From positions 867,835 through 931,834 of the forward strand of contig OZ244584.1 in the NCBI GenBank assembly GCA_965218115.1: 64,000 bases of DNA, written 5' to 3'. Shown here in pieces: positions 3,386 to 59,440 of the stretch. Below the pieces are notes generated by a model. It searched no databases and had not been told where the DNA came from. It saw nothing but the letters and a program-made list of their open reading frames with translations. The first letter of the stretch is position 1, and the number at the start of each line of letters is the position of its first letter. This stretch comes from Dehalococcoidia bacterium (GTDB lineage: Bacteria > Chloroflexota > Dehalococcoidia > Bin125). The position numbers and the translations under genes are program-made.

Positions 3386-3461
3386 TGGTGGGCCGGGCTG
3401 GATTCGAACCAGCGACCGAGCGGTTATGAGCCGCCTGCTCTGACCCCTGAGCTACCGGCCC
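3386..3461 (-). tRNA. tRNA-Met (anticodon CAT) with encoded CCA
   Basis: Reverse complement GGGCCGGTAGCTCAGGGGTCAGAGCAGGCGGCTCATAACCGCTCGGTCGCTGGTTCGAATCCAGCCCGGCCCACCA folds as a cloverleaf: 7-bp acceptor stem, GCTC/GAGC D-stem, CTCATAA anticodon loop, GCTGG-TTCGAATC-CCAGC T-arm, discriminator A, CCA. Confidence 0.9.
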
Positions 3462-3674
3462 CTGCCTGCCCGCGAGTCTAACCGCGCGGCCCCGGCGGCG
3501 TGGCCTGCCTGGCGCCGGAGCGTCCCCGCGCTTAGATGGAGGCAGACAATGAAGCTCGGCGCACCCCCCGAGTTGGCCCGGCGACCGCTGGGCCGGCGGC
3601 GAATGACTGGGGGCAAGGCCTGGTCGCACGGCCGCGGCCGGGCTGATCCGGGATACCTCGCCTAACCTCGACGC

Positions 3675-32612: not shown

Positions 32613-32639
32613 CGCAGCAGGCTACGCGGCCCCCGTGTC

Positions 32640-33980
32640 CATCCACGCGAGATCGGCTCCACACACCCCGGAGTTGCGCGCCTCCGCCCCCTCCGTTATC
32701 CCTCCGCCCTCTCCGTCACTCCCGCGCCCCCTCCGTCATCCCTCCGCCTCCTCCGTCATTCCTCCGCGCCCGCCTCCGTCATTCCCGCCCGCTCTCGGTC
32801 ATTTCCTCCCGGTTTCCGTCCTTCCTGCTCCCCCTCGGCCCTTCCTACGCCCGCTCTCCGCCATTCCTGCTACCCCTCCGCCCTTCCTGCGCCCCCCCCC
32901 CGCCATTCCCGAGTCCCCCTCCCTCATTCCCGCGCCCCTCCCTCATTTCCGCACCCTCTCCGTCATCCCCGCGCCCGCTCCGTCATTCCTGCACCCCTTC
33001 CCGTCACTCCTGCACCCCCTCCGTCATTCCTGCGCAGGCAGGAATCCATGCGAGCTGCGTGGGTTCGAGAACAGCGCCGATGCTGGACGGCCTCCCGTAC
33101 GTCCGAGCCCCCCCCCTCCGGCGGCTTCGTGGCCCGCTGGCGGGATCGAGGCGTCAGGCAGCCTGCAGCAGGGGCATCGGAGCAGGCCAGGTGCAGCCGG
33201 TGTCCATGCAGGCGGGATCCGTTCGACACACCTCGGCGTTGCGCGCATGCCCCCCTCCGTCATTCCCGCGCCGCTCTCCGTCATTCCCGCGCCCCCCCCC
33301 CGCCATCCCTGCGCCCCCTCCGTCATTCCCGCGCCCCCTCGCCATCCCTCCGCCCCCTCCGTCATCCCTCCGCCCTCTCCGTCATCCCTCCGCCCTCTCC
33401 GTCATTCCTGCACCCCCCCCGTCGTTCCTGCGCCCCCCCCTCCGTCATTCCTGCGCAGGCAGGAATCCATGCGAGCTGCGTGGGTTCAAGAACAGCGCCG
33501 ATGCTGGACGGCCTCGCGTACGTCCGAGCACCCCCTCCGGCGGCTTCGTGGTCCGCTGGCGGGACGCAGGCGTCAGGCAGCCTGCAGCAGGGGCATCGGA
33601 GCAGACCAGGTGGAGCCCATGACCATGCAACAGGCGAGATCGGTTCGACCCACTTCCGGGTTGCGCGCATCCGCCCCCCCTCCGTCACTCCTGCGCCCCT
33701 TCCCGTCATTCCTGCGCAGGCAGGAATCCATGCGAGCTGCGTCGATTCGAGAACAGCGCCGATGCTGGACGGCCTCCCGTAGGTCCGAGCGCCCCCTCCG
33801 GCGGCTTCGTGGCCCGCCGGCGGGATGGAGGCGTCGGAGGGACCTGGGTCGTCGGTTGGATTCCTGCCTGCGCGGGAACGGCGGAGTGGGGCGGACGGGA
33901 TGACGAAGTGATGGACGGAGGAGCGATGTTGGACGAGGGCGCGCCTACGACTCAATCCGAGAGATGCGCGATACGCTGCG
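32640..33980. repeat. 1.3-kb repeat-dense region: degenerate ~21-bp tandem array (CCCTCCGTCATTCCTGCGCCC, about 15 or more units) followed by three ~250-430-bp higher-order units each carrying a module-A hairpin terminus
   Basis: GTCATTCCTGCGCAGGCAGGAATCCATGCGAGCTGCGTGGGTTCGAGAACAGCGCCGATGCTGGACGGCCTCCCGTACGTCCGAGC appears at ~33027, ~33457 and ~33707. Lies between the divergent MFS and PTPS-like genes. Confidence 0.8.
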
Positions 33981-54539: not shown

Positions 54540-54878
54540 ATGGCTGACGCGAATCTGCAGGACCACGACGAGACGAAGCGGGTCGAGATGTTCGAGGGCG
54601 TGACGATGCGCACGCTGAACCACGGCGAGCACACCTCGATCCACGAAATCGAGATCGCGCAAGGCGGCGTGGTGCCGATGCACACCCATCCGCACGAACA
54701 GATCGGCTACCTGGTCAGCGGCCGGGTGCTGTTCGAGCTCGGTGAGCTGAAGCGCGAAATCTCGGCCGGCGACTCCTGGATCATCCCCTCCGAGGTCCCC
54801 CACGAGGTCACCGCGCTCGAGGATTCGGTCGCGCTCGATATCTTCTCGCCCAAGCGCGACGAGTACATCAACCGATGA
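54540..54878 (+). CDS. cupin domain protein
   Basis: Two His-containing cupin motifs (HTHPHEQ ... PHEV). 3' end overlaps the purB start. Confidence 0.7.
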   Translation: MADANLQDHDETKRVEMFEGVTMRTLNHGEHTSIHEIEIAQGGVVPMHTHPHEQIGYLVSGRVLFELGELKREISAGDSWIIPSEVPHEVTALEDSVALDIFSPKRDEYINR

Positions 54879-56539
54879 TCCCCCGCTACCAACGCCCCGA
54901 GATGGCGGCGCTCTGGACCGACGACGCCAAGTGGCGCCGCTGGCTCAATGTGGAGATCGCGGTCGTGCAGGCCTGGGCCGACGAGGGCGTCGTGCCCCGC
55001 GAGGACGCCGAAAAGATCGCCGCGAACGCCAGCTTCGTGACGGCCGACATCGACCGCTACCAGATCAAGGTGCACCACGACACGCACGCGTTCCTGCAGT
55101 CGGTCGGCGACAGCCTCGGCCCGGAGTCGCGCTGGGTGCATCACGGCCTGACCACCAACGACGTCTGGGACACGGCCTCGGCGCTACAGATTCGCGATGC
55201 GGCCGAGCTGCTGGAGCAGAATCTCGAGCGTCTCGAAGGGGTGCTGACGCGCCGGGCCAACGAACACCGCCACACGGTCTGCGCCGGGCGGACGCACGGA
55301 ATCCACGCGGAGCCGACGACGTTCGGTCTCAAACTGCTGTCCTGGGTCGACGAAGTCCGGCGCAACCGCGTCCGCCTGGCCGACGCCAAGTGCGGCATCG
55401 CAGTGGGCAAGATCTCCGGCGCGGTGGGGACGCACGCGACCGTACCGCCGTGGGTCGAAGACCGCGTCTGCGCCGAACTCGGCCTCGGCGTTGAAGCGGT
55501 GTCCACGCAGGTGGTGCAGCGCGACCGTCACGCGCATTTCGTCTCGACGCTGGCGCTGGTCGCAGCATCGCTGGAGCGCTTCGCCACGGAGATTCGCCAC
55601 CTCCAGCGCACCGAGGTGCGCGAGGTGCAGGAGCCGTTCGTGGAGGGCCAGGCCGGCTCGTCGGCGATGCCGCACAAGCGCAACCCCGAGAAGTGCGAGC
55701 GGGTCTGCGGGCTCGCCCGCACGATCCGCGCAAACGCGATGACGGCGCTCGAAAACGTGGCGCTATGGCACGAGCGCGATATCTCGCACTCGAGCGCCGA
55801 GCGCATCCTGATCCCCGACGCCTGCCAGGCGCTCGACTACATCCTCGACCTCTTCACCTGGGTCATGGACGGCCTGATCGTGGACGCCGACCGGATGCTG
55901 CAAAATCTCGGCGGCTCCCACGGCCTGGTCTTCTCCCAGCGCGTCCTGCTGGCGCTGACCGAGGCGGGCATGGGTCGCGACGAAGCCTTCCGCCGCGTGC
56001 AAACCCACGCCCTCGCCGCGTGGGACGAACAATCCGACTTCCGCGCCCGCCTCGAGGCCGATGAGACGATCACCTCCGTGCTGGATAGGTCGGCGCTGGA
56101 TGGACTGTTCGACCCGGCGGCGTTCCTGATACACGTCGACGTATCCTTCAGGCGAATCATCGAGCATGAAATAGTCTCGCTAGTACGCGCCTTCCTGGCC
56201 GAGCGAGGAGTTTCAGCGGAATCCGAGCACCTTGAACGGGGCGTCGGACCGGACTTCTTCGTGCAGCATGACGGAGTATCGGTAGCACTCCAGATCAAGG
56301 GCAGTTCCCCCCCTGATGAACGCGCGATTCAGCAGATGGACGCGATCATCCGACGCGACCCCGCCACCATCGTCTTTGCCGTCTCCTACGAGACTCCACC
56401 AAGCGGAACCTGGCGCGACTCAGAGACGCTCCGCTGGACAACGCGGATGTCGAGCGGCGATCCCGCCGCCGCGTGGTCGCGCGGAACGGCGGCGCAACTG
56501 GCTGACGCCGTGTTTCGTGCGGTGACCGACGGCGTCTAA
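54875..56539 (+). CDS. purB: adenylosuccinate lyase with a ~130-aa C-terminal extension of unknown function
   Basis: MIPRYQRPEMAALW start and the fumarase/ASL signature GSSAMPHKRNP. The ORF continues ~130 codons beyond where PurB normally ends (~430 aa). Confidence 0.8.
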   Translation: MIPRYQRPEMAALWTDDAKWRRWLNVEIAVVQAWADEGVVPREDAEKIAANASFVTADIDRYQIKVHHDTHAFLQSVGDSLGPESRWVHHGLTTNDVWDTASALQIRDAAELLEQNLERLEGVLTRRANEHRHTVCAGRTHGIHAEPTTFGLKLLSWVDEVRRNRVRLADAKCGIAVGKISGAVGTHATVPPWVEDRVCAELGLGVEAVSTQVVQRDRHAHFVSTLALVAASLERFATEIRHLQRTEVREVQEPFVEGQAGSSAMPHKRNPEKCERVCGLARTIRANAMTALENVALWHERDISHSSAERILIPDACQALDYILDLFTWVMDGLIVDADRMLQNLGGSHGLVFSQRVLLALTEAGMGRDEAFRRVQTHALAAWDEQSDFRARLEADETITSVLDRSALDGLFDPAAFLIHVDVSFRRIIEHEIVSLVRAFLAERGVSAESEHLERGVGPDFFVQHDGVSVALQIKGSSPPDERAIQQMDAIIRRDPATIVFAVSYETPPSGTWRDSETLRWTTRMSSGDPAAAWSRGTAAQLADAVFRAVTDGV

Positions 56540-56867
56540 GACACCAGCGATGCGTTGACGAGGCCTGCACGCGCACCATGTGACCCCACGCTCTCTAGCG
56601 CGCAGCCAACGGGACGATCACTTCGGCCACGCGAACTGGCCATCGCCCAGCCCTGCGCAGCGCAACAAGTGTCGACGGCCGCCGTGCTGGACACAGCTGA
56701 AAGACCCGCCCCTCAACCTCGCGTACAGGGGCAGCACGAGACTTGGGAAGCTCCCAAAAACTCTCCCCCCGCTTCGCGTTGGCAGAGTCATTCAGAGCCG
56801 TCCTGAGAGTGCCGCGCACTGAGCGCCCGTGCGACGCATGGGACTTGACGTCCTGGGCGGATCAGCC

Positions 56868-57792
56868 TCTAATCAGAACATGCATGCACACGCGGCAATC
56901 GGCAGGTCCGATCAGCCCACTCGTCAAAGCCCTGAACTGCCCGTCGCGGAGCTCCAGACCCACGATCATGACCGATCAAACCGATCAGGGCTGAACGAAA
57001 CCGATCGATTCCGATCACCCCTACCAGATAGGACAGGCGCTCGAATCGAGTCAGAATCGAAAAATCCCCCAAAAACCGATCACTCCCATGCAGCCAGCTC
57101 CAACCGCCCTCTTCACGCCCTCCATCCAGCAGGGAGTCGAGACCTTCCGACTCCCCGATATTGCTGAGCACCCTGAGGTGACGGAACGAGTTCGCCGAGC
57201 TGCATTCACGCTGGCTGCGAGCCGTTGTAATTTTGCCTGGCATGAAACGAGGGACCGCGATGCGCGTGATGCTGGAGTCTGACCTCGCGGCGCCGCTGCA
57301 ACGCGGCAACCTCACCAGGCAGCCGACTTGACATCCCGAGCGATCCCGTCTCTAATCAGAACATGCATGCGCATGCCGCGATCCCCAGATCCGATCACCC
57401 CACTCGTCGCAGCCCTGAACTGCCTGTCGCCGAACTCCTGACCCACAATCAGGACCGATCAAACCGATCAGGGCTGAACGAAACCGATCGATTCCGATCA
57501 CCTGACCAGATAGGACAGGCGCTCAAAATCGAAGCGAAATCGAAAAATCCCCAAAAACCGATCACTCCCATGCAGCCAGCCCCAACCACCCTCTTCCCGC
57601 CCGCCATCCGGCAGGCAGTCGAGACCTGCCGACTCCCCGACACGGCTGAGCACGCTGAGCTAACGGAACGAGTTCGCGGAGCTGCATTCACGCTGCCTGC
57701 GAGCCGTTGTAATTTTGATTGGCGTGAAACGAGGGACCGAGATGACCGTGATGCTGGAATCTGACCTCGCGGCGCCGCTGCGGCGCGGCAAG
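56868..57792. repeat. tandem duplication (period 482 bp) of the purC leader plus the first ~17 codons of purC
   Basis: Copy 1 is 56868-57310, copy 2 is 57351-57792. Both begin TCTAATCAGAACATGCATGC and end in ATG(C/A)(G/C)CGTGATGCTGGA(G/A)TCTGACCTCGCGGCGCCGCTGC. Confidence 0.9.
57260..57331 (+). pseudogene. purC 5' fragment (MRVMLESDLAAPLQRGNLTRQPT*) created by the leader duplication
   Basis: Aligns codon-for-codon with the purC start at 57742, then diverges into a stop. Confidence 0.8.
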
Positions 57793-58650
57793 GTGCGGGA
57801 TATCTATGACCTTGGCGAACAACTGCTGATCGTGACCACCGACCGCGTGTCGGCGTTCGACGTGGTGCTGCCGACCGGCATCCCTCAGAAGGGCTGCGTG
57901 CTCACCCAGATGTCGGCCTACTGGTTCGAGGCGACCTCCTCGGTCGTGCCCAACCACATGATCCGGGTGATCGACTCGACCGACAATCCCGACCTGCCGC
58001 TGCAGTTGGGCCCCGAATACGTGGGCCGCTCGATGCTGGTGCGCAAGGCCGAGCCGGTCAAGCTCGAGGCGGTCGTGCGCGGCTACCTGGCCGGCAGCGG
58101 TTGGGCCGAGTACCAGCAGAACTCGCGGGTCTGCGGGATTCCCCTGCCCCCCGGGTTGCGCGAGTCCGACGCGCTGCCCCAGGCCATCTTCACACCCTCG
58201 ACCAAGGCCGATGTCGGCCACGACGAGAACATCACCTACCAGCAGGCCGTCGAAATCGTCGGCGAAGACGTGGCCAACACGGTCAAGGTGCGCTCGATGG
58301 CGCTCTATCTGTTCGGGCTCGAGCGCGCGCGCCAGGCCGGCTTCATGCTCGCCGACACCAAGTTCGAGTTCGGCGTGACCAAGAACGAGCAGGGCGAGGA
58401 CGAGGTGATCCTGATCGACGAGGCGCTCACGCCCGACTCGTCGCGCTACTGGGATGCGAGCGTCTACAAGCCGGGCCAGTCGCAGCCCTCCTTCGACAAG
58501 CAACCGCTGCGCGACTGGCTGACATCCACCGGCTGGAACAAGGAGCCGCCCGGCCCGCCGATCTCCGACGAGGTCGCGGCCGTGCTCACCGAGCGCTACC
58601 GCGCCGCGTTCGAGCGCGTCACAGGCCGCGAGCTGTTGGTCGGCGCTTAG
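57742..58650 (+). CDS. purC: phosphoribosylaminoimidazole-succinocarboxamide synthase (SAICAR synthetase)
   Basis: GKVRDIYDL, LLIVTTDRVSAFDV and LADTKFEFG motifs. Start at ATG 57742. Confidence 0.9.
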   Translation: MTVMLESDLAAPLRRGKVRDIYDLGEQLLIVTTDRVSAFDVVLPTGIPQKGCVLTQMSAYWFEATSSVVPNHMIRVIDSTDNPDLPLQLGPEYVGRSMLVRKAEPVKLEAVVRGYLAGSGWAEYQQNSRVCGIPLPPGLRESDALPQAIFTPSTKADVGHDENITYQQAVEIVGEDVANTVKVRSMALYLFGLERARQAGFMLADTKFEFGVTKNEQGEDEVILIDEALTPDSSRYWDASVYKPGQSQPSFDKQPLRDWLTSTGWNKEPPGPPISDEVAAVLTERYRAAFERVTGRELLVGA

Positions 58651-58940
58651 TGGCCGAGAGCAGGTCCTTCAAGGCGGACATCTACGTCACCCTCAAGCGG
58701 ACGGTCAACGATCCGCAAGGCCTGACGATCCGCGGCGGCCTCCACGCCCTCGGCTTCGAGGCAGTCTCGGCGGTCCGCGCCGGCAAGTTCATCGAGGTCT
58801 GGCTCGAAGCCGCCGACGACGCCGAAGCCCAGCGCCAGGTCGAGCAGATGAGCGATCAGCTCCTGGCCAATCCCGTCATCGAGGATTTCCGCGTCGAACT
58901 CACCTCCGGCGGCGAGCCGGCGCCAGGAGTCGAGGACTGA
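58650..58940 (+). CDS. purS: phosphoribosylformylglycinamidine synthase subunit PurS
   Basis: KADIYVTLKRTVNDPQG...LLANPVIEDFRVEL. GTG start overlapping the purC stop (TAGTG). Confidence 0.8.
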   Translation: MAESRSFKADIYVTLKRTVNDPQGLTIRGGLHALGFEAVSAVRAGKFIEVWLEAADDAEAQRQVEQMSDQLLANPVIEDFRVELTSGGEPAPGVED

Positions 58941-59440
58941 GCGCTTCCATCTCTCCCCCCGCGGGGGGGAGATGTCACGGAGTGACAGAGGGGGGCCTCC
59001 CGCCAGCCTCGTGCCACCAGCGCTTCCATTTCTCCCCCCGCGGGGGGGAGATGTCACGGAGTGACAAAGGGGGGCCTCCCGCTCGGCGGCGAGCCGGCGT
59101 CGGGGGTCGCGGACTCAGCGCTTCCATTTCTCCCCCCGCGGGGGGGAGATGCCGCAGGCAGAGGGGGGCCTCCCACCCGCCTCGTGCGACCTGCGCCCCC
59201 TCCGTCATTCCTGCGCCCCCTCCGTCATTCCTGCGCAGGCAGGAATCCATGCGACCGACCAACCCTGCGACGAGCCTCCATCCGCCCGACGGCCCACCAA
59301 AGCCCCCAGCGCACCGCGCGTGATCGAACCCCGTCGAACATTGGGAGTGCCCTTGACCCCACAGACCGCCTGGATTCCTGCCTCCGCAGGAATGACGAAA
59401 CCAGCAGCTCCCGAGCTAACGCGAACGTCTGCGCGGAGCT
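58941..59440. repeat. repeat cluster: three direct ~62-bp module-C units (one carrying a duplicated purS 3' end) followed by MITE-like element A (~59205-59400)
   Basis: AGCGCTTCCAT(C/T)TCTCCCCCCGCGGGGGGGAGATG... occurs at 58941, 59029 and 59117. The 59082-59148 stretch repeats the last ~12 purS codons. Convergent junction with hisB. Confidence 0.85.

Follow-up and report, generated by a model that had tools for sequence, protein, structure and literature searches.

A tandemly duplicated, genus-specific non-coding module directly upstream of purC in a Dehalococcoidia genome

The region described here lies in a 64,000-nucleotide stretch of a metagenome-assembled genome of a Dehalococcoidia bacterium (Chloroflexota; assembly GCA_965218115.1, contig OZ244584.1, positions 867,835 to 931,834 of the forward strand). 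This whole stretch is referred to as the window, and coordinates are counted from its first letter unless the locus of a relative is named. The genes around the region are arranged in the order guaA, orf146, purD, a cupin gene, purB, purC and purS, followed by hisB on the minus strand. Between purB and purC, a unit of 482/483 bp is present twice, head-to-tail, and the two copies are ~88% identical. A preliminary description, made from the letters alone, had proposed a 482-bp tandem duplication of the purC 5′ leader at this place inside the pur cluster, and both the duplication and its location were confirmed. The features of the region are collected in Table 1.

Extent of the duplication and its distribution

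In the repeat search, 57061-57309 was paired with 57543-57791 at 90% identity and 56842-57019 with 57325-57502 at 87%, with a spacing of 482/483. BLASTN of copy 2 against the window returned copy 1 at 87.6% over 469 nt (E=3e-166), and Tandem Repeats Finder reported a period of 482 at 56867-57791 with 1.9 copies, 88% matches and a score of 1498. In the pairwise alignment of the copies, the unit starts with GACTTGAC at 56842 and 57325 and ends with ...CGCGGCAA, at purC codon 17, at 57310 and 57792. The right ends are those of the preliminary description, but its left ends (56868 and 57351) had to be moved 26 nt further left, and the unit therefore also contains a -35-like hexamer, TTGAC(G/A). 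Each copy consists of a promoter-like site, TTGAC(G/A)-N17-TCTAAT, followed by ~375-385 nt of non-coding DNA and then by purC codons 1-17. The level of identity agrees with the proposal that the duplication is old and its copies diverged. The assignment of a dead purC start to copy 1 and a functional one to copy 2 was upheld by the translation of the stub at 57260-57331 and by the intact purC gene at 57742. The stop codon (TGA) of the stub falls within the -35 hexamer (TTGACA) of copy 2.

By a PurC scan of representative genomes, the window was placed among uncultured Dehalococcoidia. The relatives used for comparison were the two closest loci, L001 and L002 (PurC 97% identical), and 15 loci from a protein search, and the PurC proteins of all of them were at least 95% identical. 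A profile of the unit found exactly one copy directly upstream of purC in 17 of 17 relatives (one of them on a truncated contig), and two copies only in the window. Because the unit is single in all of the relatives, the duplication is private to this genome: the 483-bp segment from ~21 nt upstream of TTGACA-N17-TCTAAT to purC codon 17 was duplicated in this lineage only. There is nothing out of the ordinary in the tandem duplication of a 5′ region as such, and here it is private to one metagenome-assembled genome.

The new joint between the copies lies at a 3-nt CAA microhomology, which occurs as GGCAA/GG in purC codons 16-17 (GGC AAG) and as CCCAA/CC in the flank. The end of copy 1 together with the linker reads GGCAA/CCTCACCAGGCAGCC, and most relatives have CCCAA/CCCCGACCAGGCAGCC upstream of the -35 hexamer. 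Since the linker matches the flank of the relatives, copy 2 carries ~21 nt of ancestral flank. The flank of copy 1 is of the type found in L002 and the flank of copy 2 is of the common type. The difference can be explained by an exchange of the flank subsequent to the duplication, or by illegitimate recombination that joined two alleles. With two adjacent direct copies, one new joint and a single copy in relatives, the arrangement has the properties of a tandem segmental duplication. It resembles illegitimate recombination at microhomology in its head-to-tail copies, its 3-nt microhomology joint and its one decaying copy without the full gene, but differs in that the pair has survived to ~12% divergence, uncollapsed by recombination, and in that the flank types are different.

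In more distant loci (L003-L018, PurC at most 87% identical) there was no trace of the unit, and the region upstream of purC was short or unrelated. In L003 and L006, purB ends ~60-130 nt before purC, and in L004, L007 and L010 a peptidase-like gene ends ~70 nt before it. The only features common to these loci and the window were a TA(A/G)(G/A)AT box located 20-30 nt upstream of the ATG and a GGAGG-type ribosome-binding site. The window's invariant GCCGTTGTAATTTTG aligns with GCCGTAGAATCTG of L004/L005, and because of this alignment the block GAGCCGTTGTAATTTTG is most plausibly the proximal -10-like box that purC had ancestrally; this box (TGTAAT) aligns with the boxes of the relatives that have no leader. 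The remaining ~350 bp of the module is the gain of one genus. The preliminary description had been prepared to give way if relatives had a short purC leader with its blocks unconserved, and this was half the case, being true only outside the genus.

The module is young, genus-restricted, non-coding, and always located directly upstream of purC. An nhmmer search with the module profile of the purC-related loci and the window found no copies beyond those upstream of purC. Copies at unrelated loci, as a mobile or dispersed element such as a miniature inverted-repeat transposable element (MITE) or a repetitive extragenic palindrome (REP) would have, were thus absent from the window and the purC-related loci, and the only inverted match near the unit edges, found by eye, is 8 nt long. 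Phage and plasmid BLAST searches with the module gave no match, and neither did a 22-mer of the invariant block when metagenomes were scanned with it. A poorly chosen pattern for the repeat array returned only unrelated simple tandem repeats from metagenome and viral sequences.

On the left, conservation ends ~20 nt upstream of the -35 hexamer, and the genes beyond this edge differ between genomes. In almost every relative, the slot between purB and the module is occupied by other genes, which encode proteins of 417-708 aa. One of these proteins has Peptidase_M9 and CarboxypepD_reg domains, and the identity between some of them is only 27%. Such genes were found in L001 (1375-3501), L004 (1883-3928), L081, L082, L086 and L220-L227, and the window and L002 are without any. 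The slot resembles a gene-turnover hotspot with its right edge ~20 nt upstream of the -35 hexamer of the module. The idea that the spacer is a remnant of the peptidase-like gene of the relatives was rejected, as tblastn gave no match in 56150-57740. Compared to the window, L002 has ~100 nt extra (3405-3502) just upstream of its single module, and this stretch holds a short dispersed palindromic repeat in reverse orientation. In L226/L227 (2059-2100), a perfect 10-bp inverted repeat (GTGCCCACGC...GCGTGGGCAC, found by eye) stands after a 90-aa open reading frame (ORF) in place of the distal -35 hexamer and spacer.

Table 1. Coordinates of the features in and around the duplicated unit (positions in the window)
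Feature	Positions	Strand	Description
purB (adenylosuccinate lyase)	54875-56539	+	430-aa core to ~56164, then 125-aa read-through extension
Copy 1 of the tandem unit	56842-57310	+	Decaying copy; ends in dead purC start
Distal promoter-like site, copy 1	56845-56873	+	TTGACG-N17-TCTAAT
38-nt invariant block, copy 1	56970-57007	+	GACCGATCAAACCGATCAGGGCTGAACGAAACCGATCG; inner 19-20-nt period
C-rich, G-poor stretch, copy 1 equivalent	57051-57128	+	
Hairpin and tail, copy 1 equivalent	57179-57235	+	
Dead purC start of copy 1	57260-57331	+	23-codon ORF; translation MRVMLESDLAAPLQRGNLTRQPT, then stop
Linker at the new joint	57311-57324	+	14 nt; remnant of ancestral flank found upstream of -35 in relatives (CCCAAC-CCCCGACCAGGCAGCC)
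Copy 2 of the tandem unit	57325-57792	+	Orthologue-like working copy, contiguous with purC
Distal promoter-like site, copy 2	57328-57356	+	TTGACA-N17-TCTAAT; followed by invariant AATCAGAACATG
38-nt invariant block, copy 2	57453-57490	+	Same sequence as copy 1 block
C-rich, G-poor stretch, copy 2	57532-57609	+	36 C, 9 G, 24 A, 9 T in 78 nt
Imperfect hairpin (57661-57709) and invariant GTTGTAATTTTG (57706-57717)	57661-57717	+	Terminator-like T-tract or proximal -10-like box
Shine-Dalgarno-like GAGGGA and purC ATG (57742)	57732-57744	+	TGAAACGAGGGAC, invariant in all 18 copies
purC (SAICAR synthetase), intact	57742-58650	+	302 aa; SAICAR_synt E=5e-70

Decay of copy 1 and constraint on the module

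The identity to the single copies of the relatives is 88-93% for copy 2 and 85-87% for copy 1. In the 18-sequence alignment, copy 1 had 26 private substitutions compared to at most 12 in any of the 17 other copies. When it was compared with eight orthologous copies, 25 of its 30 private states were at sites that are invariant in all eight. Private changes at otherwise invariant sites are the pattern expected of a copy that was released from constraint; a working locus from another strain would not be expected to show it. Copy 1, which has lost its gene, is the fastest-diverging of all the copies. Its position in the tree had a bootstrap value below 50%, too low to place the duplication before or after the split from L002. 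Copy 1 has the group-specific variants GCGCA(T/C)G..GGC in common with copy 2, L002 and L226/L227.

These substitutions also bear on the possibility that the duplication arose only in the assembly, for example from a joining of two strain haplotypes end to end. Such a joining would suit the metagenomic source of the genome and the different types of upstream flank, L002-like for copy 1 and common for copy 2. The pseudo-copy pattern of the private changes argues against it, and a divergence of ~12% between the copies means that no identical repeat was collapsed or expanded. In addition, the distance to the relatives is the same on the purB and the purC flank (~92%), and an identical PurC (P0121) is on record from a 3.15-Mb contig. 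We regard an artefact as highly improbable.

The decay of copy 1 is not uniform. In the central 130 columns (158-287 of the 18-sequence alignment), copy 1 had no private change where ~7 were expected (P ~2e-4), and TTGACG-N17-TCTAAT, the repeat block and the 3′ block are still present in it, as are its ribosome-binding site and ATG. Both copies contain the CCGATC run that had been reported before, along with GAGCCGTTGTAATTTTG and GAAACGAGGGAC, the two blocks reported with it. The further statement that the leader is retained in both copies holds for three parts of copy 1 (the hexamers of the promoter, the central block of repeats and the 3′ block), but the rest of copy 1 is decaying. This amounts to a natural experiment, in which the three parts that were spared by the decay are marked as the functional ones.

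Among the eight orthologous copies, 107 of 471 unit columns (23%) were variable, and these were very unevenly spread. The corresponding value for the four-fold degenerate sites of purC in 8 genomes was 36%, and the module evolves slower than these sites. The segments that are invariant in all 18 copies are AATCAGAACATG, the 38-nt block GACCGATCAAACCGATCAGGGCTGAACGAAACCGATCG, AAAACCGATCACTCCC, GTTGTAATTTTG and TGAAACGAGGGAC. The probability that the 38-nt block is invariant by chance was estimated as 0.64^38, or ~4e-8, which is conservative, with the variability taken from only 8 genomes. Purifying selection at the nucleotide level, acting also on part of the "dead" copy, is well supported by these data, and the selective constraint makes some cis-acting role likely.

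The constraint is not that of a protein. Variable sites were distributed over the codon positions as 23/25/30, with no 3-periodicity, no stop-free frame was common to the four copies compared, and the copies are separated by 1-nt indels. The 133-aa and 148-aa ORFs of the region had no family match in Pfam. An ORF that begins at an invariant ATG is open for 95-133 codons in the nine copies checked, a length that a composition poor in T and G would lead one to expect, and synonymous variation is absent from the invariant block. On the stops, codon positions, indels and Pfam results, a protein-coding gene or upstream ORF was rejected.

It was also considered whether the module is without function, being the relic of a decayed gene or a captured insertion whose conservation reflects recent ancestry or recombination between species. 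The young age of the module and its restriction to one genus are consistent with this explanation, as are the mosaic patterns in the leader (e.g., indels common to copy 2, L082, L219 and L226) and the gene-turnover hotspot next to it. What it does not account for is the patchiness of the conservation: invariant blocks stand beside stretches with up to ~40% variable columns within the same 420 nt, and these blocks are far more conserved than the four-fold sites of the adjacent purC. The absence of any other copy and of phage or plasmid matches, and of a conserved ORF or codon periodicity, also argues against a relic or insertion, and we consider a functionless module improbable. As judged from these comparisons, the duplicated element is a real, constrained, genus-specific non-coding module.

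Candidate control elements and their possible action

The pattern TTGACN-N16-19-TNTAAT has two matches in 64 kb, one at the start of each copy, where 0.02 were expected. In terms of sigma-70-type promoters, the distal site of copy 2 has a perfect TTGACA (6/6), a 17-nt spacer, and a TCTAAT that matches in 5/6 positions, without the A at position 2. The distal hexamers are kept in 16 of the 18 copies while the spacer between them is variable, as would be the case in a real promoter.

Downstream of this site, each copy contains six (A/T)CCGATC(A/G) sites, all on the plus strand (57390-57564 in copy 2), with start-to-start spacings of 64, 9, 20, 10 and 64 nt. Pairs of CCGATC that are 2-6 nt apart occurred in the window only within the unit (4 matches compared to 0.46 expected), and among the 86 loci compared they were found almost only in this unit. 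Clustering of GATC itself was rejected as a signal, for GATC is over-represented throughout the genome (10 per kb) and equal numbers are reached in other 200-nt windows; because it is so common, only the longer oriented motif is special.

The composition of the sense strand is strongly biased. C exceeds G and A exceeds T over ~300 nt, with the GC skew reaching -0.5 and the AT skew +0.5. The C+A fraction of 0.77 in the richest 78 nt places this stretch in the top 0.01% of 78-nt windows on either strand. The C/G ratio of 3.7-4.0 in 78-nt windows is in the top 0.3% of the window and corresponds to that of rut-type regions, in composition only. Towards the 3′ end, a hairpin of -14 to -27 kcal/mol followed by UUGUAAUUUUG was present in all nine copies folded, and its tail GTTGTAATTTTG is invariant in the 18. 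A terminator scan picked out nothing but a small stem in copy 1, and an antiterminator was not identified.

The best reading of these elements, about as likely as not, is that the module would be a genus-specific cis-acting control region of purC, composed of a promoter and either a largely unstructured leader or an operator array. Copy 2 is the working control region in every reading. We give a rough probability of 0.35-0.4 to the proposal that transcription from the distal site produces a mostly unstructured leader, which may serve as a platform for an RNA-binding protein or Rho that modulates read-through into purC. The predicted leader of ~375 nt would start at the distal promoter-like site, and its first ~300 nt, being C/A-rich and G/U-poor, should be largely unstructured. 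Five invariant ACCGAUC(A/G) repeats on the same strand, phased by ~10 or 20 nt, would form the putative platform for the trans-acting factor. This candidate factor (Rho or an RNA-binding protein) would control the amount of transcription that gets beyond the hairpin and T-tract, which precede the purC ribosome-binding site, and the proximal -10-like box, inherited from the short ancestral region, would give basal expression. The strand-specific composition, together with repeats that are all on one strand, makes selection on the transcript an easier explanation than selection on duplex DNA. Copy 1 would add to purC a second upstream promoter and binding array. Because it keeps the hexamers and the repeat block, copy 1 probably still fires or binds. 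It is a duplicate in partial decay, and its promoter and binding block, located upstream of copy 2, are probably still active.

Several observations weigh against this proposal. The TCTAAT of the distal site lacks the A at position 2 of the -10 hexamer, which is near-universal, the consensus promoter scan did not call the distal site, and L083/L086 have TCCAAT. In L226/L227, the -35 hexamer and spacer are lost; everything upstream of CCAATCAGAAC has been replaced and the rest has been kept. Compared to shuffled sequences, the folding energy of copy 2 was only modestly lower (z=-3.1) and that of copy 1 was within the ordinary range (z=-1.25), and the substitutions in the hairpin mostly break pairs, with none of them compensatory. 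Direct repeats with a phase of ~10 bp would fit a DNA-binding factor equally well. Furthermore, all of the copies are from one genus, and the comparative power is low.

The phasing of the repeats fits an explanation at the DNA level, which is nearly as likely as the RNA leader. Here, the direct repeats, with their inner period of 19-20 bp, would be sites for a transcription factor that binds direct repeats, for example of the ribbon-helix-helix or response-regulator type, and acts on one or both of two tandem promoters, the RNA having no role of its own. The repeat spacings of 9, 20 and 10 nt are near multiples of the helical turn, and the repeat block is invariant, including in copy 1, which no longer leads into a gene. 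The lack of RNA covariation is also in agreement with DNA binding, as is the fact that L226/L227 have kept the leader but not the distal -35 hexamer. The positions of the sites, 85-200 nt downstream of the distal and ~150-270 nt upstream of the proximal promoter-like site, would be unusual for an operator, however, and neither the rest of the window nor the compared purC loci contained an array of this kind. Binding to duplex DNA would also leave the C>G and A>T asymmetry over ~300 nt unexplained. Taken by itself, we consider an operator array possible.

In the preliminary description, a cis-regulatory RNA or a protein-binding array that could not be assigned to a known riboswitch class had been suggested. 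The latter part agrees with the Rfam scans: Rfam 15 at the gathering score returned only a tRNA from the whole window, and a scan of 56500-57900 with E up to 10 returned only two miRNA-model noise matches on the minus strand. The constraint makes a cis role likely, as described above, but nothing indicates a structured ligand-binding RNA. The RNAalifold covariation terms were unfavourable for 4, 9 and 18 sequences (+3.62, +2.56 and +1.03), with compensatory changes in 2 of 96, 1 of 89 and 2 of 101 pairs, respectively, and most changes break pairs. A structured regulatory RNA was not supported by compensatory changes in these sequences, all of which are from one genus, so that the power was limited. 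Quadruplex formation by G-rich segments of the minus strand and anti-Shine-Dalgarno pairing were considered by eye and set aside, with motifs that were either unconserved across copies or invariant and hence uninformative.

A new structured, metabolite-sensing riboswitch that controls purC by termination is very unlikely on these results. Its attractions are the position upstream of a purine gene, the hairpin and T-tract before the ribosome-binding site, the somewhat better folding of copy 2 than of shuffled sequences, and the mutual complementarity of some invariant segments (CAGCCCUG and CAGGGCUG). Apart from the lack of Rfam matches and of covariation, the C/A-rich, G/U-poor composition disfavours folding, and the element is confined to one genus. 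The module is like the purine/guanine, ZTP and PRPP riboswitches and the PurR/PurBox system in being a cis element directly upstream of a de novo purine gene; it differs from them in having no Rfam match, no convincing PurBox match and no covariation. The PurBox and E. coli PurR consensus sequences gave no convincing match in the region when compared by eye, and a literature search on Chloroflexi purC riboswitches and PurR regulons found nothing relevant.

Other known systems share single properties with the module. In the Bacillus subtilis trp leader, TRAP binds 11 (G/U)AG repeats and brings about protein-mediated attenuation. Similar to leaders of this type, the module has a number of short direct repeats, all on the same strand and followed by a hairpin and U-rich tract before a biosynthetic gene, but the motif is the 8-mer ACCGAUC(A/G) in 5-6 copies with spacings of 9-20 and 64 nt, and membership is not claimed. 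C-rich, G-poor rut regions are found in the Rho-dependent regulatory leaders of Salmonella mgtA and corA and in the E. coli rho leader. The long predicted leader of purC likewise contains a weakly structured C-rich, G-poor stretch of ~80 nt (C/G ~4), but the repeat array of the module is without counterpart in those leaders. Operators made of tandem direct repeats are known from the met-boxes of MetJ and from OmpR/PhoB-type boxes. The repeats of the module are comparable in being 8-10 bp long, head to tail and with a ~10-bp period, but they are atypically placed relative to either candidate promoter, and such operators leave the strand-specific composition unexplained.

A more specific form of the RNA leader proposal is that the module could be an undescribed Chloroflexota purine-gene attenuator, in which the phased repeats of an intrinsically unstructured, C/A-rich leader would be read by an oligomeric TRAP-like protein or by Rho, and in which copy 1, serving as a further promoter and binding array, would retune purC expression. 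We consider this speculative and rather unlikely. To our knowledge, almost nothing is known on promoters, leaders or purine regulation in uncultured Dehalococcoidia. If the module is regulatory, it would offer a rare look at gene control in these bacteria, and it would indicate that control regions can be young and lineage-specific, gained in one genus beside a gene-turnover hotspot.

Neighbouring genes and dispersed palindromic repeats

In the window, the usual stop codon of purB, which gives a 430-aa product in L001, L004 and L086, has been lost, and a 554-aa ORF with 125 extra residues (56165-56539) results. The purB gene of L083 was also called as a 554-aa form. The extension had no match in Pfam, NCBIfam or PDB sequences, and on visual inspection it may be a small gene, either fused or separate. 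On the other side of the module, purC and purS were called as a single ORF of 396-398 aa, with an altered PurC C-terminus, in L085 (522-1712), L086 (3501-4697) and P0124; this is either a true fusion or a frameshift error of those assemblies.

On the 3′ side of purS (58940-59400), there are three units of 80-98 nt with a TCTCCCCCCGCGGGGGGGAGA core, which are dispersed palindromic repeats of the REP/dRS3 type. The palindromic repeats of the window include CCTGCGCCCCCTCCGTCATT, which occurs twice, and ATTCCTGCGCAGGCAGGAAT-type palindromes. The same short palindromic elements recur several times in the loci of the relatives (L001, L002, L004, L005). A C-rich stretch of ~1.2 kb at 32.6-33.9 kb of the window (32635-33900) also appears to be filled by short palindromic elements.

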